Source: Asterionella formosa
Taxonomy: Eukaryota
Length of the DNA: 49,652 bases
Assembly (NCBI GenBank): GCA_002256025.1
Contig: NKIB01013935.1
Coordinates: forward strand, 1-49,652
Direction: 5' to 3'
Shown: piece after piece, positions 1-41,903 of the stretch
Layout: every line of letters starts with the position of its first letter
Position numbering within the stretch: position 1 is the first letter of the stretch
The notes under the pieces: model-generated
Told to the model about the DNA's origin: nothing
Seen by the model: the letters and a program-made list of their open reading frames with translations, nothing else
Databases searched by the model: none
Program-made: the position numbers and the translations under genes

Positions 1-515
1 CCTTTCCTTCTATTTCTATATTGTACTTGCTCGACTTATTGCTGTAGACTATTTGTAGCTGCTCCGAAACGGAGAAGGCCATTGCGGCACATCTCAATTT
101 TGACTCACTACGGCGACATGCAAGGTTAAAATATGCAACAGCTGTTTCTGAACGAAATAACGGATTCAATTCCTTATTGTCAGCTACTCAGCATCCTTTC
201 CTTCTTTTTCTATATTGTACTTGCTAGAGTTATCGCTGTAGACTATTTGTAGCTGCTCCGAAACGGAGAAGGCCATTGCGGCACATCTCAATTTTGACTC
301 ACTACGGCGACATCCAAGGTTGAAATATGCAACAGCTGTTTCTTAACGAAATAACGGATTCAATTCCTTATTGTGAGCTACTCAGCATCCTTTCCTTCTT
401 TTTCTATATTGTACTTGCTCGACTTATTGCTGCAGACTATTTGTAGCTGCTCCGAAACGGAGAAGGCCATTGCGGCGCATCTCAATTTTGACTCACTAGC
501 TACGGCGACATGCAA
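1..515. repeat. Tandem repeat, 194-bp unit, about 2.6 copies (runs off the window start)
   Basis: Units start CCTTTCCTTCT at 1, 195 and 389 and are nearly identical. Confidence 0.95.
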
Positions 516-1056
516 TGCTAAACGATGCTCAACGAGGACCAACAGTGCTTTATTTCCAATCTGGCAGGCTATTGTAATCTCTACAATCAACAATGACTTA
601 ATTATGTGTCTACAACATCAACTACTACTACTACGTGTGCTGAATTCTACAGTGTGAATCTTCCTCTTGCATGTGTTTTTCTTTGCCAGTTCAGATCAAA
701 GTGATATGTCGGAGCGGAAAAAATAATAAGTGTATCGGAATTGGCGACTCTTTCGTTCATTATATGGTGAAAGCAGCATAATATTGCGGCAGAGCAGCAT
801 AATTTCGCTTTTAAACTGTTGCGATGGCTAGTTGGTCAACATATATTGTCACGAACACACATAATTATTGGTGTGATCACATAATTATTCGATAAGTGAA
901 ATAAATTTTTGTTTAACCCGAATAAATTAGGGAAAAAGTAGCATAATATTTCAAAAAAGTAACATAATATTTTAGAAAAGTAACATAATATTTTAAAAAA
1001 GTAGCATAAATACGTCACTTTACACATAAATTCGAAAAAGTGCCGTAAACGGCGTC
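1..1056 (+). mobile_element. Non-coding dispersed repeat, copy 1 (possible non-autonomous Helitron/Helentron-like element)
   Basis: Inverted homolog at 20033-20956. Contains 194-bp tandem units, a (CTA)n run, four 21-bp units at 933-1010 and a terminal hairpin GCCGT-AA-ACGGC. Repeat status is seen directly; the class is inference. Confidence 0.6.
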
Positions 1057-1328
1057 TTAGAAGTATTTTGGCAATTCCCACCCTAGCTATCGTCTTGCTT
1101 TTCGATGAGAACTATGGGTGTCTAAGTAATTTTTGGAATCTCTAAGTAATTTTTTTAATTTAGGGGCAATATGGGACACATTGGATTTTTCGGCAGTCCA
1201 ATTTTAGGTTTTGAGCAGGGGACCATCGAGCAACGTAATTAGTAGAATTTTGATGGGAAAAAGTTTAGACACATCAAAAATACATGGACCACCGAATATA
1301 CCGGTACCGGTATATGCATGAAAAATAG

Positions 1329-1856
1329 TCACACAAGAATGATTGTACCAAGCATCGAAAATTCGACACGATGTTGTGAAGCAACCAAAGTATGAAACGG
1401 AAATCGAAAGGTAAGAAGTGAAAATGACAAGCAGAGAGTATTCTCGTTAATCGTGCATTTTGTCCACTGACCTGACAAGGCAATCACATTTGCCATATTA
1501 CTTGACTCGTACGTAGACACTAACTTGTCCCACGCTTCCTTCGCATTTCCATTGGGGAACTCTTCACTTCTGGCACCATTTACGTATCCAAATGGTCCAC
1601 TCTGACATGCCATAATCAAACTTGCATAGGCAACCGTATTATTTCGTTTCGCACGCTTCTCATCGTTGTCACTCAGAACAATCTTCACTCCAGCTGAATC
1701 TCTCTCACCTGGTGATACTTCATCTCCATTTAGGATTCCTTCAAAACCTTTGTAGCAGGCATAGGCCACAAACTTCGCTTTCCAAACATGCCACTTGGCA
1801 TCGGTACCATCAAATGTTGGCAACCGCACTCCTGAAGATTCATCGTCAATTCCCAT
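1329..1856 (-). pseudogene. Ty1/Copia gag N-terminal fragment, truncated
   Basis: ORF with LPTFDGTDAKWHVWKAKFVAYA...GNAKEAWDKLVSTYE, typical of a Copia gag (UBN2-like) N-terminus. Similarity is lost near 1445. Confidence 0.85.
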
Positions 1857-1892
1857 CTTGAGTACCCTTTAAAACCTATCCGCTTTAAAGCG

Positions 1893-12061: not shown

Positions 12062-13900
12062 GTCGCGATACTAGGAGGTAGTAACCGCACCTAGTAAAGA
12101 TCTGACTTGTTTTAGATTGGTAGGTGAAGACATATTAATCAATTCTCGGACCTTTTTAGACCAAGTTTTCAGTCCATTAGGAGTTAGCCAATAGCCTAGT
12201 AACCGATCTGTCTCTTGGACTGCCCGTTCACACTTGGATGGATTAATTGTGAAACCAGCGATTTAAAATAGTATCAAACGAATGTAAGTGATCTTTAAAA
12301 TTCATAGAAAAACAACCCACATCATCAATATACATTTCCACATCATCTTAATCACCAAGAACCTGTTCCATTGGTTTCTTGAGCAATGTCAGCACCCAGA
12401 TGATTGTTTCACCCCCATAGGGAGACGTAAATATTTATTTAAACCAAACAGAGTGGAAATAACACACAAATGTTGACTCTCCACATCTTATGCAAAAGTG
12501 TATTATTGCATAGAAAGATCCAATTTGGTGAAAAATGCATAGTCAGCTCGTGTAGTGAGAATAGTTTGTATTCGAGGTCAAGGATAAATATTGCAATTGA
12601 TGAATTTATTTAATTCACGAAAATCTGATACCCATCGGCCGGACTCTTCCATCCTTTTTGGGAATAATAAACAAAGTAGGAGATGCCCATATAGAAGCAC
12701 AACATTTTTGTATGACGCCAATATCACATAACCGTTGTAATTTGGTTTTGAAAACTTCTAAATGAATTTGGGCGACCGGATACTACGCTCAGTGATGACG
12801 GGAAATAGCATCTGATAATATATGCAAATGTACCTGCTCTTTATGGGGAAAATTTTTTAATTTGCCTTTAAATAATGTTTGATATTTAGACAATATACAT
12901 AGTTTGTAGATGGTTGTGACCGTTGAACTGTTGTCAAATGCACTTGTTCATCCACCACTGCTTTAATATCCACAAATTTTTATTCAGCAGCTTTAATGTC
13001 CAAAGCATATGAGGATTCCACAACAATAGATGCATCAAAATATTATAATACATTGCGTAAACACTCTCGATCATCAAAAAATGTGAGAGGATGCATAGGA
13101 ACAACAATATCCATACAAGACATGGTGTTATTTACAAAAGCAATGCATGGTTAAACCAACTTGACAAAGGAAATCACGTCCTAAAATAGCATCAAATGTA
13201 CATAGGCCTTTGAAAACTTGGCATTTTTGTTGTAAAATACAAGCAGATCGATTAGATTTGGGGAGAATTATATCATGTAAAATAACACTGGCATGAGATG
13301 AATAAGTAACAGGTAGTATCATGGTTTGTATTAATTGGGAAGTCTCGTTAGACAAAGGAATACCTTGAGGCATAACCCATTCATTCATTAAAGATAGGAA
13401 TCCTCCACTATCAAATAGTACCTGTAAAATTTTATGCATAGGGATAGCATCCACCAATCATGGTGCTAATGGAAACATCGGAATTAAATCAATAGATTCT
13501 AATGTGTCTTTAGTTGTGAAACAGGAGGAAACCGAAGTCGGAGCCTGGTAGCTATGATTAGTTTGGAACATCATGTCGATCTATACATTTATATATGTCC
13601 CGCATTACGGCAACAGCGGTATCCATTGTATATTCAACCTGGAAGTAAACATTATTATTTAGGCGATTACAGACGTGATTCATGCTCAACAAGGAGTCAT
13701 TATAAATAGCATCACTATTATCATACATACCTCTGTGATGGTGATCAGCATTCTGCTGTTGTGTAGTACCAGGGACAAAAGCCACTCACTGACAGGCAGG
13801 TGGGTTCATGACCACTGAAATTTCCTGGGCAGATGTATTCTTGTTAGGATTGGCACGTGGCATGGTACCAGGTACCACAACCGGATGGATGATCATTATT
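12062..13900 (-). mobile_element. Degenerate Ty3/Gypsy gag-pol remnant (protease and RT), copy 1
   Basis: Aspartic protease VLFDSGG...AILGRDFL (13128-13457); RT EMYIDDVG (about 12310-12345); [17 protein letters not shown]...QVRSLLGAV. Many stops. Confidence 0.9.
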
Positions 13901-14290: not shown

Positions 14291-15596
14291 CTGAAACAAT
14301 TTCGTCTTCATTCGTCGGAATTACCGTGTAGAGCAACAATTAAATTCCGGTAGTAAATTCTATGCAATACCGGTCATTGAGCAATTTTAATTATACCACC
14401 GTTATTTGCTTGAATGAGGGGCCGATGGGAAGTGCGTACATAACCTGCGTTTTCATCAGTGCGTATGCTATATCAAATACCAAGCCATTTTGACGAGTCG
14501 CATTGTATCAAACAAGCGCGAAGTGGCAGATGGTGCAGATGATGCTTCGTTGCATCAGGCACGTCATGCAAGTTCACTGCCCTCATGATTCTGGTCGCAT
14601 AAATACAAACCAGTATACCTGGTACTGCTGAGAATTTGAGTATCGAAAACGTCGTACGTTGCAATCAGAACTTGTTTTGGCTCATAGAATGGTACGATTC
14701 TTTTATCCACATTAATTACTATAGCAGGTTCATTACCCAAACCACACCATATTCAGCTGAAAGACCTTACAAAATCAAAATTTAGTATTGTCCTATCACG
14801 CAATTAGTGAATGAACAACTTTTCATCTCGACGCCGAAAGAACAAAGAAAGCAATACAAACAAACTTGTTTCTACCATTGTGAGGAAGGAATAAAAGGGC
14901 AAGTGGCGTTTCAAGGTGTAAGTGAAACAAGAAATGTTTTGCCTTTCCTTGTTGACTTGAACAGTGCTTGTTACCATTCAATGCTACGACGACTCCTGTC
15001 ATGATAATTGAGTACTGGGTTGAAATATAAAGGACGACGAATGCCATTTATGATTATGCATCGCAGAATCATGGTACAAATGCTGCATTCTTGGCATTGT
15101 TACCGTTGATGCTTTGTTCCAAAATGATTCGTTCCAACATTGGTTGGCAATATTGAGAAGTTTACCATCTTTGTGGATTTTGGAGCCTAAAAGCATCGGT
15201 TTTCGCACAGCCTTTCGGTAAAAATCTTTTGATCGTTGTTTCGTCATTCTCGTCGCCTGCAATGATTTTGCCCCGTTTTGTCGCCATGGTTGGAGCTGCA
15301 TATTGGCACTCTCATCCACCTCAGGTGAAAGTGATGAGAACACTAATGACCACCGATGCGAACTGTACGCACTTATTGATTTGATTTACTATGATGATGG
15401 GCTTGAGCTAGGTTCCCACTAAAAAATTCAGGCGCGTCAGGGGGCTATTGATGTTATGATGCACTCGTTTCGAAATGACGTCGTTGATGTCGTCCCCCAC
15501 CTATTATTCACATTTACTTACATGTCGCTCTTGGTAAATCGCAGCGACAGGCAAGTACATCAATTTAAATTAAATGCGAACATAAAATATTCTCGG

Positions 15597-18455
15597 ATGA
15601 CAGATCAACAGCACCAACAGTCGATGGCCGGAGTAGGATCTGTTTCACAATATCAGAGCGTACCCGTTGGACAAGCCAGTCAACAAGGTCAGATGAACAG
15701 AGACTCCATTATGTCGGCACCTACAGACCTTTCTCCTCATGTAATGAGCATCATGAGGAATCCAGGGGCTTCCATGTTTCAGCCCCAAGTTCTGATGAAT
15801 AACCCAGGAGCCTACTTTGTCGTTCCCGATATGTTTGCTGCTCAAATGCATGCGTCATGCCAGGTTAATGGAGCTCAACAAGTGCAAGCTGGACATTACG
15901 CGACAAGCCTTTCAAATTTGATAGGAAATCAGGTTGTCTCAAACGGATTCACTGGGAACCACCAGGTGCAGCAACAAGTTGCTCATCCTGGCCCTACTTA
16001 CATGCAACAACCGCAGCAGCAAATGCAAGCAAACCTACATGTTCTACAAGCTGCCCCTCAGCAGCAGCAACAACAGCTACCCAAGCTTGCTCCCACCATT
16101 ATGTCAGCACCACAAAACATGGCACCGATAGCTCCCCAATCGGCAAACCTGGGTGCAATACCCGTTTTACCACCATTTTCATCTTCTGCTCTCCAGGTTG
16201 TTTCATCGCAATCGGGATCGAAAACTGGTTCCAACAAGGATGGCGACAAGGCACCCCGTGAAAAGGGAGAGTTAACAAATGCCCAAAAGGCAAAGCAAAA
16301 TCGTGATCGAAATCGAGAGCATGCTCGATCGACGCGCCTTCGGAAAAAAGCTTATGTCATGAAGCTGAAGGAGTTGGTGGAGGGTTTGCACTCGGAACGA
16401 ACTGAGGAGTCAAGAAAACGAAGAGTCGCTGTTCAGCATTTAGCTGAAGTGCAAGGTGTACGACGAGCCGTAGTTAGATCGTTTTTGAGGTTTCACTCGA
16501 GCTACGAAAGTGATTCCAGAAAGTGGTCAACCCTCGTAGAGGATGAATTCTGGTTCAAACAGCCTGTCACTCCTTATAGATCATTTCGTCGTGTCGAGAT
16601 TGAACAGGACTGTCGGATCTCGCGAGGTATAGAAGCAATGATATCTGACGCTGCTAGTATGTCCGTTATGACGGAGTGTATTGGATCAAGGAGCACTCGT
16701 TGGATGCAGATAAAGCGCGAGGAAGTTCGTCATCGAGACCCATTGAGATTGGGATCATCAAATATGCCTCAGAGTATCACAGGCCAGGGCAGCCGGTTGA
16801 ATCATGCGATTTCAAGTCTTTCGTCAAGTTCTGGATCGTCGAATAATTCGGGCGGGGAGGAGGATCGATGCGCAACAAGAAAGCATCAATCACAGCACCA
16901 CTCAACCTCCGGTCTCATGCAGCAAGGACAAGTCGGAGTTGACGGAGTTCCCAATGCAAATAATGTCAGCTCGTCGAGTGGGAGTGGGAGCGATAGCGGA
17001 AAGAACATCAATCCTTCGAATGAATATCATGACTATCATGCTCAACCACTCCCCGATCCAATGTTGGGAGATTCAGAAGAAAGTGGCGCAGCTGATGATT
17101 CTGCGGGAGACTCCAACAATAGCATGAATGGCAATGCAAATGGTGCCAACGGCGGCAAGGTTAGTTCTGATTCATCGTCAGGTGACGAAGATAAGTCAAC
17201 AGAACAAGGTGCTTCAAAACGGAGAAAGTCAGAAGAAGCACAGATCAACAGCAATAATAAACACACAATTTTAGAGCAGGTCCCCATCAATGGCGTTGAG
17301 GCCACTGTTGCTTTCACAGCAGGGGCTGCTGCTGCGCGGGCGATTGGAAGTGGTTTGCCGCTCAATATTGCGAAGTCTGGAGGAATTTCGCACACGGTTC
17401 GCGCTGTTGCTGCTCCCCCAAAACAGAGTGGCAATGTGCGACTGAGCACCGCTCCTGCAATCGTTCTTCCCCCTTTCATGGGGATTGGCAAACGACTCAC
17501 GGTAGCGAACCCGTGTGTGACTGCCATTGTACCTCCGCCTCCATTGGTTTCGCATACTTCTGATGTTCCTTGTGCGGCATCGATACCAAAACATGCTCCC
17601 AAAGTTGCTATGATGGCTCCGACAGCCGTAAGTCTTTCCACGGGCCGTTATTCCTTGTCGGCGTCGGATGGCGGCGTCAGTAACGCATTTGGAAGTGCAT
17701 CTGTTTGTGGAACAGCGACAAACATTGTCCATGATGCGGACTCATCATCGAGCCATTCGTTGAAGCAATCACCACAGATCCGAGCATACTATCATGTCAA
17801 CGAAGACGATATGATTTTGACTGAGGATGTCTTAATGTGTCCATTCATCTTCCGATCCCAAGATGCTGTTTTATGTGGTGCTTTGGCTGAGTGTGTTATG
17901 CCAGGTATGCTCCGTGCACGCTTTTCTAGTCGCAACAAGTTGATGAGTTTGGAAATGGTTTACGACGCCATGGGGTATATGCAGCAGCTTGAGCGAGCCT
18001 CAGGATCAGAGGGCAACGCCCAAATTATACCGGGCAGCCTTGAAATGGCTCTCTCTCCAAACACGAACGAATCACGGGTAATTACCCTTGCAAAGTCCCC
18101 ATTCTTGATTGTCAGTGTCAATGAAGCATGGACCCGAACTACCAAGTACACTCAAATGGAAGTTGAGGGAAAAGAATTCAACATTCTACATGGCGAACAA
18201 ACAAATCATGATGCTGGTATGCGCAAGGGCAAGCCATTTCATAAGTTCGACGAGGTCGCAAAGGGTCGATGTGCTTGCTCTACTAACATTCACTATGACA
18301 AGGAGGGCAAAGAATTCATTGACTTTGTGTGTTCGTATCCTTTGACGAATGCTCATGATGATATTACTCATATTCTTCACATCTCGAAAGAGTTGCCGGC
18401 CCCAACCAGTCCGACCACGGGTTTCCAAGAATTTCGCTCCGAGGGGGGGCAGTAG
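15597..18455 (+). CDS. bZIP transcription factor with Q-rich N-terminus and C-terminal PAS domain (diatom bZIP-PAS type)
   Basis: Single long ORF (open from 15456; likely start ATG 15597, MTDQQH). Basic region NRDRNREHARSTRLRKKAYV plus zipper. C-terminal PAS-like RVITLAKSPFLIVSVNEAWTRTTKYTQMEVEGKEFNILHG. Confidence 0.92.
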   Translation: MTDQQHQQSMAGVGSVSQYQSVPVGQASQQGQMNRDSIMSAPTDLSPHVMSIMRNPGASMFQPQVLMNNPGAYFVVPDMFAAQMHASCQVNGAQQVQAGHYATSLSNLIGNQVVSNGFTGNHQVQQQVAHPGPTYMQQPQQQMQANLHVLQAAPQQQQQQLPKLAPTIMSAPQNMAPIAPQSANLGAIPVLPPFSSSALQVVSSQSGSKTGSNKDGDKAPREKGELTNAQKAKQNRDRNREHARSTRLRKKAYVMKLKELVEGLHSERTEESRKRRVAVQHLAEVQGVRRAVVRSFLRFHSSYESDSRKWSTLVEDEFWFKQPVTPYRSFRRVEIEQDCRISRGIEAMISDAASMSVMTECIGSRSTRWMQIKREEVRHRDPLRLGSSNMPQSITGQGSRLNHAISSLSSSSGSSNNSGGEEDRCATRKHQSQHHSTSGLMQQGQVGVDGVPNANNVSSSSGSGSDSGKNINPSNEYHDYHAQPLPDPMLGDSEESGAADDSAGDSNNSMNGNANGANGGKVSSDSSSGDEDKSTEQGASKRRKSEEAQINSNNKHTILEQVPINGVEATVAFTAGAAAARAIGSGLPLNIAKSGGISHTVRAVAAPPKQSGNVRLSTAPAIVLPPFMGIGKRLTVANPCVTAIVPPPPLVSHTSDVPCAASIPKHAPKVAMMAPTAVSLSTGRYSLSASDGGVSNAFGSASVCGTATNIVHDADSSSSHSLKQSPQIRAYYHVNEDDMILTEDVLMCPFIFRSQDAVLCGALAECVMPGMLRARFSSRNKLMSLEMVYDAMGYMQQLERASGSEGNAQIIPGSLEMALSPNTNESRVITLAKSPFLIVSVNEAWTRTTKYTQMEVEGKEFNILHGEQTNHDAGMRKGKPFHKFDEVAKGRCACSTNIHYDKEGKEFIDFVCSYPLTNAHDDITHILHISKELPAPTSPTTGFQEFRSEGGQ

Positions 18456-20032
18456 GATTTCAGGGTGTGCTTACACTTGTCTAATGCACTTCTTGATGAG
18501 TAGTTAGTGGTATGCAACAGTAATAACTATTATCACCATATAACCTGTTAGTTGTTAGACTACCTGTAATCCATTGAATATATAATACTAAGTATTGCTA
18601 TCAATCCCATGGCTGGGTGCATATACCAGAAATGCAAGGTAGTCTTGTGTAGGCACGCTTTGTCAATGAATTGCTACCCTGGTCATTAGTGGTTTTGCGC
18701 AATATTCCGCTTTCTAAAATAAAGCCAATCACCATGTTGGTCATTCATTCTTGTTTTCCTGTTGTTGCTGCTGCTGCTGTATTCATCATTCTTTTAACTA
18801 GTTACAGTCCCCTTTTTAAGGAGAAGCAGCAGTCCAAACCAAAGTTCCTCATTCTGACTTGCTTAAGTTGCTGGTCAGTACCATCACATCTCTCCATGAC
18901 CATTGGTTACCTGCCCATCAAGCCATTGTGGACACACATGCACCTCTATGTTTCAAGGTTTCAGATGAGATTGCTTTTTGGTTCTCACTATGCTATTGGC
19001 AAGAGCTACTACCACAAAATTGGTTAACCTGCAAATGGAACAACCCAGAATGGTCAAGATTGACATTTCGCTTTTGTCACATTCTTTTTCAGTGATGCAT
19101 GGCTTCATTTTCATCATGGTAATCAAACCTGCTGCCTCAGAAGGCATGCTAACCACTCAGCCACTCCTGCATATATACTGGTATATATATATTCACTGAT
19201 CACCATAACTGTTTGTTCAAAAATGGAAGAAAAACAATTATAACCAACAACTACTAGGTCCATTATTATGAACGACCTACAGGCAGACACTGCCAGCACC
19301 ACAGAATGTTTAACGTCATCCTTCAGCTGATACATGTGAAGGGAACTAATTAGTTTTGCTTGCACTTAGATAACCACTTATAATAAATAGGATAGGATTT
19401 ACGAATTGTCCTGTCCAAAGGTACTTTCAAGAACTGTATCATAAAAGTTGCAATGCTCTCTGGATAGGTGCACTATCCTGATATTTTCCCTTTGCTATGT
19501 TATGTTATTTGGTCTAATAACCTGATAGATATAGTATCCCCTTTCTACATTTTTTCTACAAAAAAGCTCATACTACCTGGTATCTGTTTAGAATTTACAC
19601 TTTTTAGCCAAGTATAAAGGCGAAAATAATAAGGACTAGTCTAGTACGAAAAAGAGTAGGAAGGAATTCACTGTTAGTCAAGCTAGATTGGTTTCAGTGC
19701 TCCCTTTGGGGAATTGTCAGGCAAAGGCGTCATCACCATGGCGAAGCAGCAAATGTTCACAGAGGGTCATAACGATACAACTAAACAACCAAGATTATCG
19801 GCAACACATCCTACTACTACTGCAAAGGCGATGAAACTATGCGAGGCAACAGAAGCGAAACCGAGAAAAATACAAGCAATTAACGCAATCAGCTACAAAT
19901 GCGATGATGTGGAAAGTGCGCTTGCACCAAGAACGGCGGCATTTGAGGGAAAGCTTGCAAAATCAAGAGAAGCAAATGGCTCTGAACTACAAAACACAAC
20001 AACAACAGCTCAGGCACGCACTATGCATCTGA

Positions 20033-20956
20033 CACGCCCTTTATGGCACTTTTTCGAATTTATGTCTAAAGTGACGTATTATGCTACTTTTCTAAAATAT
20101 TATGTTACTTTTTCCGTAAATTATTCATGTTCAACAAAAATTTATTTCACTTATCGAAAAATTATGTGATCACACAAATAATTATGTGTGTTTGTGACAA
20201 TATGCATATGTTGACCAACCAGTCATCACAACAGTATAAAAGCGAAATTATGCTGCTCCAAGGCAATATTATGCTGTTTTTAGTCTACCATATAGTGAAA
20301 GAAAGAGTCGCCAATTCCGATTCACTTATTAGTTTTTCTACTCCGACATATTTCTTTGAACTGAACTGGCAAAGAACAACCCATGCAAGAGGAAGATTCA
20401 CACAGAAGAATTCAGCACACGTAGTAGTATTAGTATTAGTAGTAATAGTAGTAGTAGCAGTAGTAGTAGTAGTAGTAGTAGTAGTAGCAGTAGTAGTACT
20501 AGTAGACACACTATAGCACATTGTTTAGTCATTGTTGATTGTAGAGTTTACCATAACAAACCAGATTAGAAATAAAGCATCGTTGCTTCTTGGTCCTAGT
20601 TGAGCATCGTTGAGCCTTGCATGTTGCCGTAGTAGTGAGTTAGATTGAGATGTGTCGCAATGGCATTCTCCTTTTCGGAGTGGCTACAAATAGTAGTCTA
20701 CAGCAATAACTGTAGCAATTACAATATGAGAAAAGAAGCAAAGGATGAGTAGCAGTCAATGATGATCGATTTCGTAAATTTGTTTAGAAACAGCTATTTT
20801 ATATTTTAACATTCAATGCATGTCGCCGTAGTGACTCGAAATTGAGATGTCCCGCAATGGCCTTCTCCTTTTCGGATCGGCTAGATTACGTCTACATTGA
20901 TAACGGTGGCAAGAACGATTTGATAATAGAAGCAAGGACCGAGGAGCTGACGAATA
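20033..20956 (-). mobile_element. Dispersed repeat, copy 2 (inverted homolog of 1-1056)
   Basis: GGCACTTTTTCGAATTTATGT.TAAAGTGACGTA is the reverse complement of about 1011-1044. Collinear similarity continues through about two diverged 194-bp units. Confidence 0.85.
20421..20504. repeat. (GTA)n microsatellite, imperfect
   Basis: Run of GTA/GCA/TTA triplets; expanded relative to the short (CTA)n run at about 622-634 in copy 1. Confidence 0.95.
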
Positions 20957-35229: not shown

Positions 35230-36437
35230 CGATAGCAACTCATCAGATGATGATTGCCTCTACCATTTCCACAAAATGCATTCTTGTTGTCAACAAGAAT
35301 GAAGTGAGAACGACACAAAGAAAAATCAAAGTAGGGGGGGGGGGAGGTTCCAAGGTTGGCAAGGCTACTAACATGAATCGTTTTTGTGCAAAGTACAAGA
35401 AGCTGTTGAAAAATGACTATTTCGAAGACAACCCGATCCACTCTCCTGCATTTTTAGGAGGCGCTTCCAGATGCGCCGCATCAAAAGTTTACTTCAGCGC
35501 TTCTTCGAATGTTGGCTTATGGAACTTCGGCGGATCAGCTGGACGATCTCACAAGAATGACTGAATCTACCGTACTCCGCAACCTAAAAGTGTTTTGTTA
35601 CTCAATAATCAGCAGGAGGTAGTAGTATGGCACAGAATATTTGCGAGCTCCTCCTACTACAAAGGATGACATGGAAATGATTTTACGTCTCCATGAGGAA
35701 GCAAAGGGTTGGCCAGGACTTCTTGGTTCATTGGACGTGATGCAGTGGGAATGGAAGAATTGTCCCAAGGCACACAGAGGAGCATCTCAAGGAAAATATG
35801 GAGTGGATACTGTTCAGCTTTGGAAGCTGCTGTTGATTGTAGACTTTGGTTCTGGCATGCATGGTTGTTAGGAATGCCAGGTGCTAACAACGATCTCAAT
35901 ATTTTGGATAGTTATCTGTTTCTCCAGGATGTGACAGCTGGATTGACTACTGCTGTCAACTTCACAATCAACAACAAAACACAATCAAAGTTACTATTTG
36001 GTTGATGGCATCTATCCAGATTGGCACATTTTCGTAAAAACAACTTTGGAGCCATAAGGTGCAAAGTGTGCATATTTTGCAATGCTTCAAGAGGCCCAAC
36101 AACGCAAGGACGTAGAGCGAGCATTTGGTGTGCTACAGGCAAGGTGGAGGATCCTGTAACTTCTTTGCAAGCTTTGGTCAATAGGTGATATGAATCATTT
36201 CATCATTGCATGTATCATAGTACTACACAACATGATTATAGAAGATGAGTGGATACACAACAAACAAACGAATATTTTTTTGATAAAATTCAGGATGGCT
36301 TTTTGGTTGACGATGTGAATCGCGACAACGTGCATATTTTTATAGATTTCAAAGCAATTAGAATGAACTACATGAATGAAGGTGAGCACTACCAATTGGA
36401 TTTGATCGAGCACTTGTGGACTCAAAAGGATAAATAA
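35230..36437 (+). pseudogene. PIF/Harbinger DDE transposase, frameshifted
   Basis: GWPGLLGSLDVMQWEWKNCP, GMPGANNDLNILD, LVDGIYPDW, RKDVERAFGVLQARWRIL and LHNMIIEDE. Confidence 0.92.
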
Positions 36438-37330: not shown

Positions 37331-38059
37331 ATGCTGAGCGATGATGTTGAATAAATTATGCGTATTTCTAGTATGTGTTGACACCGAACTGACGCGCTGA
37401 TGGTTGTATTTGTCTACATGAAGAGCGATAGTACTGAAAATATATTTTATCTATGTGCACACTTATTAAACCATAAACGCTATGTTGCCGGCGCGAGCTA
37501 TGAACTAGACCAATAGAAATGCTTCTTTTGTTTGGCTATTATGGTCGGAGTCTAATTGACCAAATACCTGATATTTGGTAGATAAGAGGGTCAGGTACAT
37601 TACCATCCTTGCACATATTATGTATTTCTAAATGCACAATGGTTTTTTTGGAATTAGTTTTCCTTCAAGCGATGCGAATTTTCTAGTCGCATGAAGACGA
37701 ATAAACAGTGTATTGTTGAGTGTCTATCCTATGTATGTCTATATGAAATTGCATGATGACCTTTCAATATTCCATAGAAATATAAACCACGAAAATTTTT
37801 ATGTATTACCAGTACTTTAAATCCAGAACGAAGGATAGGTGGTTTTTTCACTTTGGCCAGGCAGATTACTATGTGAGAGCTCGACTAACACCAATTGACT
37901 ACTTTAATGTCAACCTACTAGGTGAATGAGTTCCATAAAATGATTAAATAATAAGCTTATGATTCAATAAATACGACTTTTTGTAGCTAGTTAGATACTT
38001 CACTTTGAATTCAAAAAGAGTCAAGTTAGAACTAAAACATGGCAATGTATTCAAGAGTT

Positions 38060-39240
38060 CCTGTTATTCCCTTGATTAAGGATTGCAATGTCTTCAACAT
38101 CCAAACTAAGCAATTTCGGGTTGCTTTGACTGGTGGAAGGTTTGGATACTATTGTTTATTTACAGGATAACAAGACATTGGACACAGCCGGCCTTGCTGT
38201 AGTAATACAGTATATATACAATTGCATAGATGGACAAGATGTTTTACATGCATATCAGGGTTCAATTCCGGTTTCTAGTTTTACATCTAAATATATATAT
38301 TAACATCAATCAATTTGAATCCGATGCAATCAATTTGAATCCGATGTCTATTTTAGCCTCACGATTGGTGGATGCTATTCCCATGTATTAAAAAACTATG
38401 AGCGTTGTTTGATAGTGGTGGACCCCTATCATTAATTCACAAACAGGGGAATGGCTTAGTGGTTAGCACACCCACTGTGGTGGCGGGTTCGATTCCTGCA
38501 TTCTCCACCTGTCTTTTTCATGTAGTCCCTAGGGTTCTGGGGGGTGCGGCTGACGAAAAGACAGGTCCCCGTTGTACTGTGCGGACGAATAAAACAGGTA
38601 CTGATTGTGTCCATCTATTTGGTGGGCCCGAGTGCAATTATTGGATAGCTTTAATGTACTATAAAATTTAATTGACATTTATCATTAATTCACAAACAGG
38701 TCATGCCTCATGGTATTTCACTGTCTAATGAAAATTCTCAATTAGTACATACTATATCAAGTACTCATTCATCTCACGCCAGTGTTGTTTTACATGATCT
38801 GATTCTTCCCGAATTTAATTGAACTGCTGGTATAATACTGCAAAAATGTCAAGTCTTTAATGGTTAATGCATTTTTGATGCCATTTTAGGCTGTCATTTT
38901 CTTCATCAAGTTGGGTTAACTTTTAATTTTATAAATAATACCATTTCTTCAGTATGGATATGATTGTGCCAATGCATGCATCCTCTCACATTTTTTAATG
39001 ATGGAGAACATTTACGTGATGTATTATTGTATTTTGATGCACCTACTACAGAATCATCACATGTCCTGGAAACCAAAGCTGCAGACTATAATTATGTGGA
39101 TGTATCAATGCAGTGCTGGCCAAACAAATTCATATAACAGTGGATCAATGGTTACAATTACAAACCATCTGCCTTGTCTAAATTTCAAATGCTCTTTGAT
39201 GGCAAATCAAAGTTTATCCTCATAAACAGGTCCATTTTGA
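38060..39240 (+). mobile_element. Degenerate Ty3/Gypsy remnant (protease region), copy 2, interrupted by the SINE
   Basis: Collinear with the reverse complement of about 12810-13700: LFDSGGPLSLIHKQ/VMPHGISLSNENSQL versus LFDSGGFLSLMNEWVMPQGIPLSNETSQL. Confidence 0.88.
38446..38679 (+). mobile_element. tRNA-Ala-derived SINE-like retroposon, 234 bp
   Basis: tRNA-like head 38446-38507 with A box TGGCTTAGTGG and B box GGTTCGATTCC. TSD TATCATTAATTCACAAACA(GG) at 38427 and 38680. The insert is absent from the paralogous Gypsy copy. Confidence 0.85.
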
Positions 39241-39324
39241 ATTAATGCCAGATGCTGTTCCCTCTCGTCAACGTGCGTATGAGGTACCTGGTACCAGGTA
39301 CCCCCTCGTATGAGCGTCGAGAAC

Positions 39325-39326
<2 letters not shown>

Positions 39327-39355
<29 letters not shown>
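39327..39355. repeat. (TA)n microsatellite
   Basis: Read directly; about 14 units. Confidence 0.95.
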
Positions 39356-39358
<3 letters not shown>

Positions 39359-39599
39359 TTGTATATAGAACAGGAGTCTTAATCATAGGCAAAGCGGCTA
39401 CAGCCGCATGTCCCGGTACATACCGGTACTACGGGGTAGCAGTAGCTGGTGCACTCCTTCCAGGGAAATGCCCCAAAGCATATCATGTAGCCTACCGGTA
39501 TAATCTCTATTATATACATGTAAAAATCAAGCAGCCAAAAGCAATGCATCCATTGAACATACCGGTAAACTATACAGCATCAGCAAACGGGATGAGACG

Positions 39600-41903
39600 A
39601 TGGCCGAGCCTCATGGGAACGATGGAGAGAGCTTTTTGCCTCAGTCGCCAGCCAGGATAACCGAGCGCAACGTATCTTTGCCAACAGCTAGCGGTAATAT
39701 GCCCATAGCAAGAGTGCGCCAGTGGACCACTAGTAGTTTGCCAACGACTAGCTTCGGTGCCGACCTGACCCAAGCCGCTGACGATGAATCGTTGTTTCAT
39801 GCAAGCTGGACTGGAAAGCAGGACTTTTCGGGAGGACCAGTCTTGTCCATAACTTCAAGAACCACTCCCAATTCTGGGGCTGCTGTAGTCGATGGCGACA
39901 ACGGACGATTTCACGCTCCAGATGATGCAAATGCGGTCACCTCAAGCATTCATCATGAAGCTCGCATTGAAAACTGGCAAGTCGTCTTGAGCCTTTGCAA
40001 TTCTCAACCACATCACGCACAGTATGCAGACCAAAATGGCTGGACTGCGTTACATCATGCCTGCAATCGGCGATGTCCGAGAAGCGATGTAGTCAAAGCC
40101 TTAATTATCGCTTATCCTGGTGCATTGCTAGATTTGGAAGAAAAGGGGATGACTCCTTTACACTACGCCTGTAGATTCAAAGCTCCAGTGAAAGCGGTCA
40201 GACATCTATTGCATTTATTTCCTGAAAAGGGCCATGCTGCTGTTTCCAGGCGAGATCGACAAGGAAGGACACCGCTGTTTTACGCAGTCAGATACGAGGC
40301 ACCACCAGGAGTGGTTGAACTGCTATTGGAAGTAGACCCAGGCGCCGTTTTGAATGAAGATCGAAATGCGGGCAGCCCTTTGGCTGTTATTTGGGATGAT
40401 TGGGCTGAAAAATTTGAAGGGAAAAGGACATTGCAACCCTACCTTCATCCTGACGAAGCAGGGTTGCAAGACTCCACACCAGCAGGGTTGCGTGCCAAGT
40501 TGGAAGCGGACTTGAAACTAAAGAAACGTTGGTCTAATGTTAATATGCTACTTCGTGCTGCGTTTAGATTTCCGATGGAAACGCCTTCCACCAAAAGTAT
40601 CGAGAATCGGCAATGGAGAGTCCTCCATGCCACAGCAGCTATAAAATGTCATCACACACTCTTCCTTTTGGCGAGGGCATTGTACCCTGAACAGGCGATG
40701 GAATTTGATGAGGGAGATTTGAGCGTCAATCATACAATACCACGATCTGCTTTGCATCTCGCGGCATCTTCGCCCGCAAATGGCGACTCTGGAAAGTCTG
40801 TCTTGGCGTCCCTAACGGAACTTAACCCCGAAGCTGCGTTCATGGTAGACGAAGAAGATGGAACTTTACCTTTTCACCTTATTGTTGATAACAAATGGAA
40901 GTCGCATTGGTCAATGGACGGTTTGAGGTCATTGCTTTCAAGCAACCCTCTAGCAGCTAGGGCAGTTGACAAACAGGGAAGAATGCCACTTCACAGAGCA
41001 GCGGCCGCTATCGCGAATCATGCTGGGACGGACTGGTCAGGTGCGACTTCGAGCCTGGATATCCAATCAACTATTTACAATTTGCTTCAAGTATATCGCG
41101 AAGCAGCGAGAGTGCCAGACATTACAGGGTGCTTGCCTCTACACTTGATAGCGTCCCAGGGGAGAATATGGGACGAGGAGGTTGATGCTGTGTATAATGC
41201 ACATGAAGCTGCCACTCGAACAAGGGCAGGACCACAGGCTGATTTTTGTTTACCATTGCATTTGGCGGCCAACAACAAAAGGGCAGAGTTGTCGCTCGTT
41301 GCAAAGTTGGTGGAACTTAACCCCAGAGCTGCTTCTCAAACAGAAGCGAATGGAAAGCTCCCCTTGCATCTTGCATGCGAAATTGGTAATACGTGGGATA
41401 AGGGTATTTCTAATATTTATGATGCTTTCCCTAACGCTGTGCGCGAACGTGAAGCAAACGGAAGAAGTTGGACAGCACTACAAATGGCTTCAGCTTCGCG
41501 CAACGAAACTGGTCCATTAATTGAAAAGCTTGTAGAACTCAATCAGGGAGCTGCGAATCAACAAGATACCAAGAAACGTTTTGCTCTTCATCTCGCTTGT
41601 GTTGCTGGCAAGGGATGGGAAACTGGCCTTCGCACTCTTTTTGAAGCCAATCCCGATGCACTTTTCATTGAGGATGAATGCGGCCTTCTTCCCTTCCACA
41701 TCGCAGCGTTTCGATACTGCAAACCTTCAGAGATAGAAATCGAGAGGGCGAATAACTTGAAAGGACCAGTCTTCAAATCGAGAGTGATTGTTCGCACCAA
41801 CATCGTCGAAATACCAAGTCCGCGATCATGTGAAAACGAAGCTGTCCAGATCGAAATAATGTTCGAGCTCCTCAGGGCTGCCCCCAACGTCCTTTTGATT
41901 TAA
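39600..41903 (+). CDS. Ankyrin-repeat protein, 767 aa
   Basis: Repeated GWTALHHAC, GMTPLHYAC, GRTPLFYAV, GRMPLHRAA, GCLPLHL and GKLPLHLAC motifs in a long intact ORF. Confidence 0.93.
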   Translation: MAEPHGNDGESFLPQSPARITERNVSLPTASGNMPIARVRQWTTSSLPTTSFGADLTQAADDESLFHASWTGKQDFSGGPVLSITSRTTPNSGAAVVDGDNGRFHAPDDANAVTSSIHHEARIENWQVVLSLCNSQPHHAQYADQNGWTALHHACNRRCPRSDVVKALIIAYPGALLDLEEKGMTPLHYACRFKAPVKAVRHLLHLFPEKGHAAVSRRDRQGRTPLFYAVRYEAPPGVVELLLEVDPGAVLNEDRNAGSPLAVIWDDWAEKFEGKRTLQPYLHPDEAGLQDSTPAGLRAKLEADLKLKKRWSNVNMLLRAAFRFPMETPSTKSIENRQWRVLHATAAIKCHHTLFLLARALYPEQAMEFDEGDLSVNHTIPRSALHLAASSPANGDSGKSVLASLTELNPEAAFMVDEEDGTLPFHLIVDNKWKSHWSMDGLRSLLSSNPLAARAVDKQGRMPLHRAAAAIANHAGTDWSGATSSLDIQSTIYNLLQVYREAARVPDITGCLPLHLIASQGRIWDEEVDAVYNAHEAATRTRAGPQADFCLPLHLAANNKRAELSLVAKLVELNPRAASQTEANGKLPLHLACEIGNTWDKGISNIYDAFPNAVREREANGRSWTALQMASASRNETGPLIEKLVELNQGAANQQDTKKRFALHLACVAGKGWETGLRTLFEANPDALFIEDECGLLPFHIAAFRYCKPSEIEIERANNLKGPVFKSRVIVRTNIVEIPSPRSCENEAVQIEIMFELLRAAPNVLLI

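Follow-up and report, generated by a model that had tools for sequence, protein, structure and literature searches.

A probable high-copy family of tRNA-derived SINEs in a freshwater pennate diatom, recognised from a copy inserted in a decaying Ty3/Gypsy fragment

Genomic context of the insertion

The window, by which we mean the whole 49.6-kb stretch of DNA analysed here, contains eukaryotic genes coding for a DEAD-box helicase, an ankyrin-repeat protein, an inositol monophosphatase, a papain-type protease and a carnosine N-methyltransferase. The best named relatives of the DEAD-box helicase come from pennate diatoms, with identities of 53–61%, and an identical protein is found in JGI metagenomes. 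Several further features were observed in the window: 1) A frame of 1010 aa (15423–18455, +), rich in Gln and Ser, which shows a C-terminal match to PAS_9 (E 2.4e-4, below the cutoff) and Atlas feature matches to PAS clusters; with a putative bZIP stretch recognised by eye, it looks like a diatom regulator of the bZIP-PAS type. 2) Two adjacent ORF pieces at 35626–36002 (+) that match the Pfam family Plant_tran, a PIF/Harbinger-type DDE nuclease (E 1.5e-11 and 2.6e-10), and appear to be a broken DNA-transposon gene. 3) A repeat at the very start of the window (1–1061), which is internally tandem (1–330 versus 195–528, 93%) and recurs in inverted orientation at 20028–20956 with 77–92% identity. 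4) A weak match to a Copia-type gag at 1329–1868 (-), with an E-value of 2.6e-4 that lies below the cutoff.

The feature of principal interest is a short insert that splits a degenerate retrotransposon fragment, an uninterrupted paralog of which is present elsewhere in the window (Table 1). The original prediction described this fragment as a Gypsy protease. The protease ORF of the window itself gave no Pfam match; P0210, a relative with 78% identity, matches the Pfam family RVP with 25.6 bits (cutoff 20.7). Among the six long relatives that were scanned, five contain RVT_1, RT_RNaseH and Integrase_H2C2 in this order, three of these five additionally showing rve at E ≤ 1e-5, and the sixth (1179 aa) has RVT_1 and RT_RNaseH only. 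The RVP match of P0210 and the domain order of the long relatives together support the assignment of the fragment as a retropepsin of the Ty3/Gypsy type, in agreement with the earlier description. In blastn comparisons the paralog (12784–13396) aligned to 39279–38680 with 72% identity over 621 nt, and it retains an open ORF of 109 aa at 13131–13457 (-).

Table 1. Positions of the insert, its parts and the sequences surrounding it in the window
Feature	Position	Strand	Size, basis or remark
Putative SINE copy (tRNA-like head, body and AT-rich 3' end)	38446..38680	+	233–235 bp
Left copy of target-site duplication	38427..38445	+	21-nt direct repeat; single target in paralog
Right copy of target-site duplication	38681..38699	+	21-nt direct repeat
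tRNA-like head	38446..38508	+	Rfam tRNA match and cloverleaf MFE fold
A-box-like Pol III promoter element	38452..38462	+	combined A/B pattern
B-box-like Pol III promoter element, T loop	38486..38496	+	pattern match
Body of the putative SINE	38509..38680	+	about 172 nt
Hairpin directly after the head, with 11-bp perfect arms	38507..38566	+	inverted repeat; MFE and centroid folds
3' body and tail	38567..38680	+	1-nt indel near 38570; end ...gacatt(t)
Degenerate Ty3/Gypsy-type protease-region fragment, interrupted at 38446/38700	38360..39279	+	blastn, flank alignments, domains of relatives
Uninterrupted paralog; empty target at 13377–13396	12784..13457	-	blastn, flank alignments

Boundaries of the insert, target-site duplication and empty site

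A repeat search of the region recovered a perfect direct repeat of 21 nt (38427–38447 and 38680–38700), the two copies of which are spaced by 253 nt. Boundary letters (the t at 38427/38680, and the two g at 38446–38447/38699–38700) may be assigned either to the element or to the target, and hence the target-site duplication (TSD) measures 18–21 bp, against the perfect 19–21 bp that had been proposed. When each flank was aligned separately, the left flank together with the first repeat copy, and likewise the second repeat copy together with the right flank, aligned to the paralog, in which the target is present only once (13377–13396); the right flank further shares 27 of 42 residues with the protein encoded by the paralogous ORF. 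As both flanks of the insert abut on this single target copy, the paralog serves as a true empty-site control for the insertion; the original prediction had pointed to this paralog near 13340–13420. The related claim, that removal of the insert restores the protease frame, was borne out only locally: the frame would indeed be rejoined across the insertion point, but an in-frame stop and a frameshift are present upstream of it, at 38385–38402. With these lesions the interrupted copy would be dead even without the insert.

A perfect tandem duplication of 20 nt is present at 38307–38346, 100 bp upstream of the insert and in the same Gypsy fragment, with a single counterpart in the paralog. Its length equals that of the TSD of the insert, and it could have arisen through replication slippage or through repair of a staggered break without insertion.

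With its 233–235 bp the insert is well within the size of short non-coding SINEs (less than about 600 bp), and a Pfam scan of the ORF that runs through it returned no family. A contig of the algal sequencing run X1 is identical to the window from the left flank to 25 nt into the element; under the 31-nt bridging rule, none of the contigs listed bridges the junctions. Joints skipping 38447–38699, which would correspond to an empty allele, were absent from the 15 of 31 joints considered, a count that is uninformative on polymorphism.

The tRNA-like head and its promoter boxes

The 5' part of the insert was aligned by cmscan to the whole of the Rfam tRNA model (38446–38507, +, model positions 1–71) with 26.2 bits and an E-value of 0.0028, a score that falls below the Rfam gathering score of 29; ARAGORN called no tRNA at the head. 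The MFE fold of 38446–38508 is a cloverleaf: its D stem measures 3 bp, the anticodon arm is replaced by a stub of 4 bp, and the T arm has a 5-bp stem and a 7-nt loop. Its acceptor stem comprises 7 bp (G1-C, G2-C, G3-U, G4-C, A-U, A-U and U-A) followed by an A. The head combines G3 (38448) paired with U70 (38504) and the discriminator A73 (38507) with a short D arm and an intact T arm; its 7-bp acceptor stem with the G3:U pair and the discriminator A had been read from the letters at the outset. The anticodon insert spans 5 positions in the cmscan alignment as opposed to 13 in the Rfam model, so that the arm is roughly 9–11 nt short, close to the deficit of about 11 nt originally estimated. A combined A-box/B-box consensus pattern matched once in the window (38452–38496) and not at all in 100 shuffles; both boxes and the T arm are retained, as had been claimed.

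The pair G3:U70 and the discriminator A73 constitute the classical identity set for alanine recognised by AlaRS. Translated copies of the element, described below, allow these positions to be followed in other members of the family. A Gly codon conserved in all 17 translated copies that reach it has G3 as its middle base, and the Ser codon that begins with U70 is preserved in 57 of 67 copies and replaced by Pro in one. The conservation of both codons indicates that G3:U70 is ancestral to the family, a founder trait, and speaks against a private mutation of the window copy; A73 is taken to be family-wide as well. A tRNA-Ala ancestor of the head is plausible on account of G3:U70 and A73, although the anticodon arm has been deleted.

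Two other stretches of the window bear some likeness to the head. The stretch 19121–19167 (-) is 77% identical to it over 47 nt and includes A-box-like and B-box-like parts, with no Rfam tRNA match at E ≤ 10; it stands as a lead, and could represent the decayed remains of a kindred element or a chance resemblance. A B-box-like motif at 38259–38269 was set aside, as it gave no tRNA match.

The body, the hairpin and the 3' end

The original estimate of about 170 bp for the body agrees with the length found here. The only inverted repeat of the element, formed by 38507–38517 and 38556–38566, is internal and provides the arms of the hairpin that directly follows the head. Within its 5' arm, 7 nt past the head, lies a run of five T (T5, 38514–38518), which is a potential Pol III terminator. 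Of the 67 translated copies, 56 preserve the codons over this run (CLFH), for which reason the T5 run may be a family-wide trait. Pol III is expected to terminate, at least partly, at such a run, that is, ahead of the body.

The 3' end is AT-rich, and inspection of its sequence revealed neither an A-tail nor a simple repeat. Most relatives are separated from the window copy by a 1-nt indel near 38570; in the contigs of the sequencing runs one base is left out at 38570, and downstream of the indel 48 of 67 translated copies use the other frame as against 5 of 67 that use the frame of the window. An 11-nt word is shared by the 3' end (38665–38675) and the host fragment 147 nt downstream (38812–38822), which is probably a matter of chance in AT-rich DNA.

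These features bear on the idea that the insert is a solo LTR or a fragment of a tRNA-bearing miniature LTR retrotransposon of the Helenus/TRIMp3 type, or else a MITE with a tRNA-like segment acquired by chance. The window is rich in debris of LTR elements and DNA transposons, and tRNA-like sequences are described in the LTRs of such elements in the available text of PMC10886601. Nevertheless, the TSD of the insert is 18–21 bp, whereas the same text gives Helenus TSDs of 4–5 bp along with paired LTRs, a PBS and a PPT (PMC10886601). Moreover, terminal inverted repeats are absent from the insert, whose sole inverted repeat is the internal one, and no second LTR-like copy is found in its vicinity; the best match elsewhere in the window is the 47-nt head-like stretch 19 kb away. 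We consider an origin of this kind very improbable.

Copies of the element in sequencing runs

Among the matches listed for the 31-mers of the element, there were 20 runs from 16 studies, mostly freshwater metagenomes. The contigs of four runs were aligned to the region 37400–39900 at a likeness of at least 80%. In the algal run X1, contigs identical to the unique flanks of the window have depths of 712–1101, and single contigs bearing the element have comparable depths of 883 and 770. The depths summed over the three bins of the element were 415,376, 978,347 and 778,960, in comparison to 36,676 in the bin just to the left of them and 3,249 in the second bin to the right (38744–38827). The ratio of the summed depth over the element to the depth of a single-copy contig is about 10^3, summed depth being distinct from copy number. 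The immediate neighbourhood includes other stretches with very high summed depths in X1 (37484–37651, 37988–38071, which with 961,823 is the highest of them, 38240–38323 and 38996–39079), and it is on this account a mosaic of other high-copy repeats.

The similarity of contigs to the window ends sharply at the two termini of the insert, namely at 38446 in 34 contigs of X1, and at 38680 in 63 contigs of X1, 19 of X11 and 2 of X19. Beyond these points the consensus agreement of the loose flanks is 0.42 in both X1 and X11, and 0.73 in X19. A further 78 contigs of X1 and 22 of X11 switch at 38479 to a common alternative 5' sequence, and many contig joints omit 63–131 nt of the central body; these two kinds of variants establish that subfamilies exist. 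The major head variant among the loose ends of the contigs has no match within the window. Near-identical pieces of the unique flanks are found in the two freshwater runs that were aligned, with 0 and 2 differing letters in X3 and 6 in X11; together with the relatives of the helicase, this identifies the host as a pennate diatom of fresh water. A two-motif pattern scan for DNA copies returned one metagenome-contig locus, four genome-contig loci and no viral-contig locus, and blastn identified all five as chance matches.

In the RNA-library runs X11 and X19, the contigs carrying the element have unrelated flanks or are long, one of them being a polyA contig of 9157 nt. Due to these flanks and lengths, the contigs are attributed to embedded or contaminating copies rather than to Pol III transcripts; as the two libraries may contain DNA, they are evidence neither for nor against transcription.

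Translated copies in protein databases

The frame that is open through the window copy yields a 74-aa translation (frame 1), which was used as a query. All 67 candidate clusters were recovered at E ≤ 0.001, mostly from ENA assemblies, with a few from JGI or also present in NCBI. At least 67 clusters of metagenome "hypothetical proteins" (P0121–P0187) are translated copies of the element, and hence spurious gene calls.

These clusters provide a second view of the termini. In 17 of the 67, the protein extends by at least three residues upstream of the first codon of the element, giving 15 distinct flanks with three clusters sharing one of them, and every one of the 17 loses similarity at that codon (38447). 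Immediately before the 5' boundary, all 17 have L, Q, S, W, R, A or E, residues that each possess a codon with G in third position; this agrees with the G at 38446, that is G1 of the tRNA-like unit, as the likely first base of the family. On the 3' side, the usual stop is read through in three of the 67 clusters and in P0196, a cluster member; these retain the final three codons of the element before their sequences diverge, so that translated copies part ways downstream of the codon at 38678–38680.

With fixed ends and many unrelated flanks in both contigs and translated copies, the element is a family of many copies rather than a single retrocopy. The notion that a tRNA or tRNA-like gene was retrocopied once along with its flanking sequence, or that the insert is an assembly artefact, draws on the fact that the 49.6-kb window contains just one full copy. 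It is refuted by the hundreds of contigs in four runs and the 67 protein clusters, which carry the element in differing contexts; the window-identical contig of X1 that passes from the left flank to 25 nt inside the element, a reach below the 31-nt bridging rule, also counts against it, and we regard its probability as negligible. The comparison that had been put forward as decisive between a retrocopy and a SINE family has therefore come out against the former, and the family that was predicted is seen in the contig ends at 38446 and 38680, the depth ratio of about 10^3 in the bins of the element, the 67 clusters and the 15 different 5' flanks.

Class assignment and a model for the origin of the insertion

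Integrases and DDE transposases leave short TSDs. A TSD of 18–21 bp, unaccompanied by terminal inverted repeats or LTRs, makes them a poor fit for the insert. The window copy, the sole one read on both sides, has a perfect TSD of this length together with an empty paralogous site. We conclude that the insert very probably belongs to a tRNA-derived SINE family present in high copy number in the nuclear genome of a freshwater pennate diatom, and that it would have been inserted by target-primed reverse transcription.

The course of events might be envisaged as follows: 1) A master copy, equipped with the internal A and B boxes of its tRNA-like head, would be transcribed, presumably by Pol III. 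2) An autonomous non-LTR retrotransposon, which we infer to have been a LINE, would supply the endonuclease and the reverse transcriptase that convert the resulting RNA into DNA at a staggered break of the chromosome. 3) The stagger of roughly 20 nt would be filled in to give the TSD of 18–21 bp. 4) The window copy would have landed in a fragment of a Ty3/Gypsy protease that was already decaying. A non-LTR reverse transcriptase or endonuclease was not detected in the window ORFs that were scanned, comprising all 15 ORFs of at least 150 aa, the protease ORF at 13128–13457 and 59 of the 134 ORFs of at least 75 aa. This negative result weighs against the proposed course of events, as do the T5 run, the lack of an A-tail or simple repeat, the Rfam score short of its gathering threshold and the negative ARAGORN call. 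A search of 38300–38800 for hammerhead or other ribozymes gave no match at E ≤ 10.

Some of the same observations could be accommodated by another class of non-autonomous retroelement, in which a Penelope-like or other mobiliser combining endonuclease and reverse transcriptase acted on the element, or Pol II read-through supplied the templates, with the head being a relic or a structural module. Consistent with such a history are the T5 run right behind the head, which is possibly conserved, the lack of an A-tail, the RNA-library contigs that carry the element only embedded in longer sequence, and the scanned ORFs of the window, among which no LINE was found. However, both promoter boxes match exactly, and neither the acceptor arm nor the T arm is disrupted; all 15 distinct 5' flanks stop at the first base of the head, as is expected if transcription starts there; and the ribozyme search of 38300–38800 was negative at E ≤ 10. 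On balance we deem this class unlikely, and favor a tRNA-derived SINE.

A bolder synthesis may also be offered, with the caution that its parts, taken jointly, are rather more apt to fail somewhere than to hold throughout. The family might be the first structurally defined SINE family of a diatom, with about a thousand loci and recent activity. It might have kept the AlaRS set (G3:U70 and A73) and the minihelix of acceptor and T arms while its anticodon arm was deleted. The T5 hairpin would then imply expression via read-through of the terminator or via an unusual Pol III/Pol II route, and the TSDs of around 20 bp would point to an undiscovered diatom non-LTR retrotransposon. The 20-nt duplication upstream of the insert could be a scar left by the same endonuclease without insertion.

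Descriptions of diatom repeats usually assign the dominant share to LTR elements. A SINE family would imply that active or recently active non-LTR retrotransposition machinery exists in these organisms. In practical terms, it would supply a concrete repeat model for annotators of diatom genomes, account for dozens of false "hypothetical proteins" in the gene catalogues of metagenomes, and, through the presence or absence of individual insertions, furnish a marker system for typing strains and populations of a lake diatom.

Comparison with known elements

The tRNA-derived SINEs (SINE2 type) of animals, plants and fungi resemble the diatom element in being short and non-coding, with a tRNA-like 5' head bearing A and B boxes and a unique body. 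Like the diatom element, they occur as interspersed copies with fixed ends, and the length of the TSD is that expected from target-primed reverse transcription. Unlike them, the diatom element has no A-rich or simple-repeat tail, carries a T5 run and a strong hairpin behind the head, and has an anticodon arm reduced to a 4-bp stub; its host, a diatom, also sets it apart.

Helenus/TRIMp3 shares with the diatom element the presence of a tRNA-like Pol III promoter module within a short non-autonomous retroelement. Yet, as far as the available text of PMC10886601 describes it, Helenus consists of two LTRs with a PBS and a PPT and is flanked by TSDs of 4–5 bp, none of which are found in the diatom element.

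The nearest host group with described SINEs is represented by Phytophthora infestans with its infSINE families; it is also a stramenopile, though the two hosts are only distantly related. The accessible part of PMC3429519, which cites Whisson et al. 2005, characterizes the infSINEs as SINEs that are non-autonomous and whose Pol III promoter is internal. The same source gives 32 copies for infSINEm, against the order of a thousand that the depth ratios suggest here, the two families being compared by description (PMC3429519).

SINEs were formerly considered absent in unicellular eukaryotes (PMC7466962, PMC5859163, in the text available). Among diatoms, a "putative SINE" category of 13 elements and 1,454 bp in Phaeodactylum tricornutum was called the first in a diatom (PMC5859163), and SINEs figure as an annotation category in Cyclotella cryptica (PMC7466962) and in Pleurosigma pacificum (PMC12803021), as far as the accessible text of these papers goes. 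The remark in the original prediction that SINEs are poorly documented in this group is in keeping with the papers searched, which in their available text provide pipeline categories only (PMC5859163, PMC7466962). A structural description of a diatom SINE was found in none of the literature searched, to the extent that its text was accessible; the family may already be catalogued in Repbase, Dfam, SINEBase or supplementary tables, which lie outside that search. The diatom "putative SINE" annotations thus share host group and nominal class with the element described here, and are, in the available text, pipeline output with no described head, ends or TSD. The present element, in contrast to these annotations as that text presents them, has a defined anatomy, boundaries, an empty site and a high copy number.
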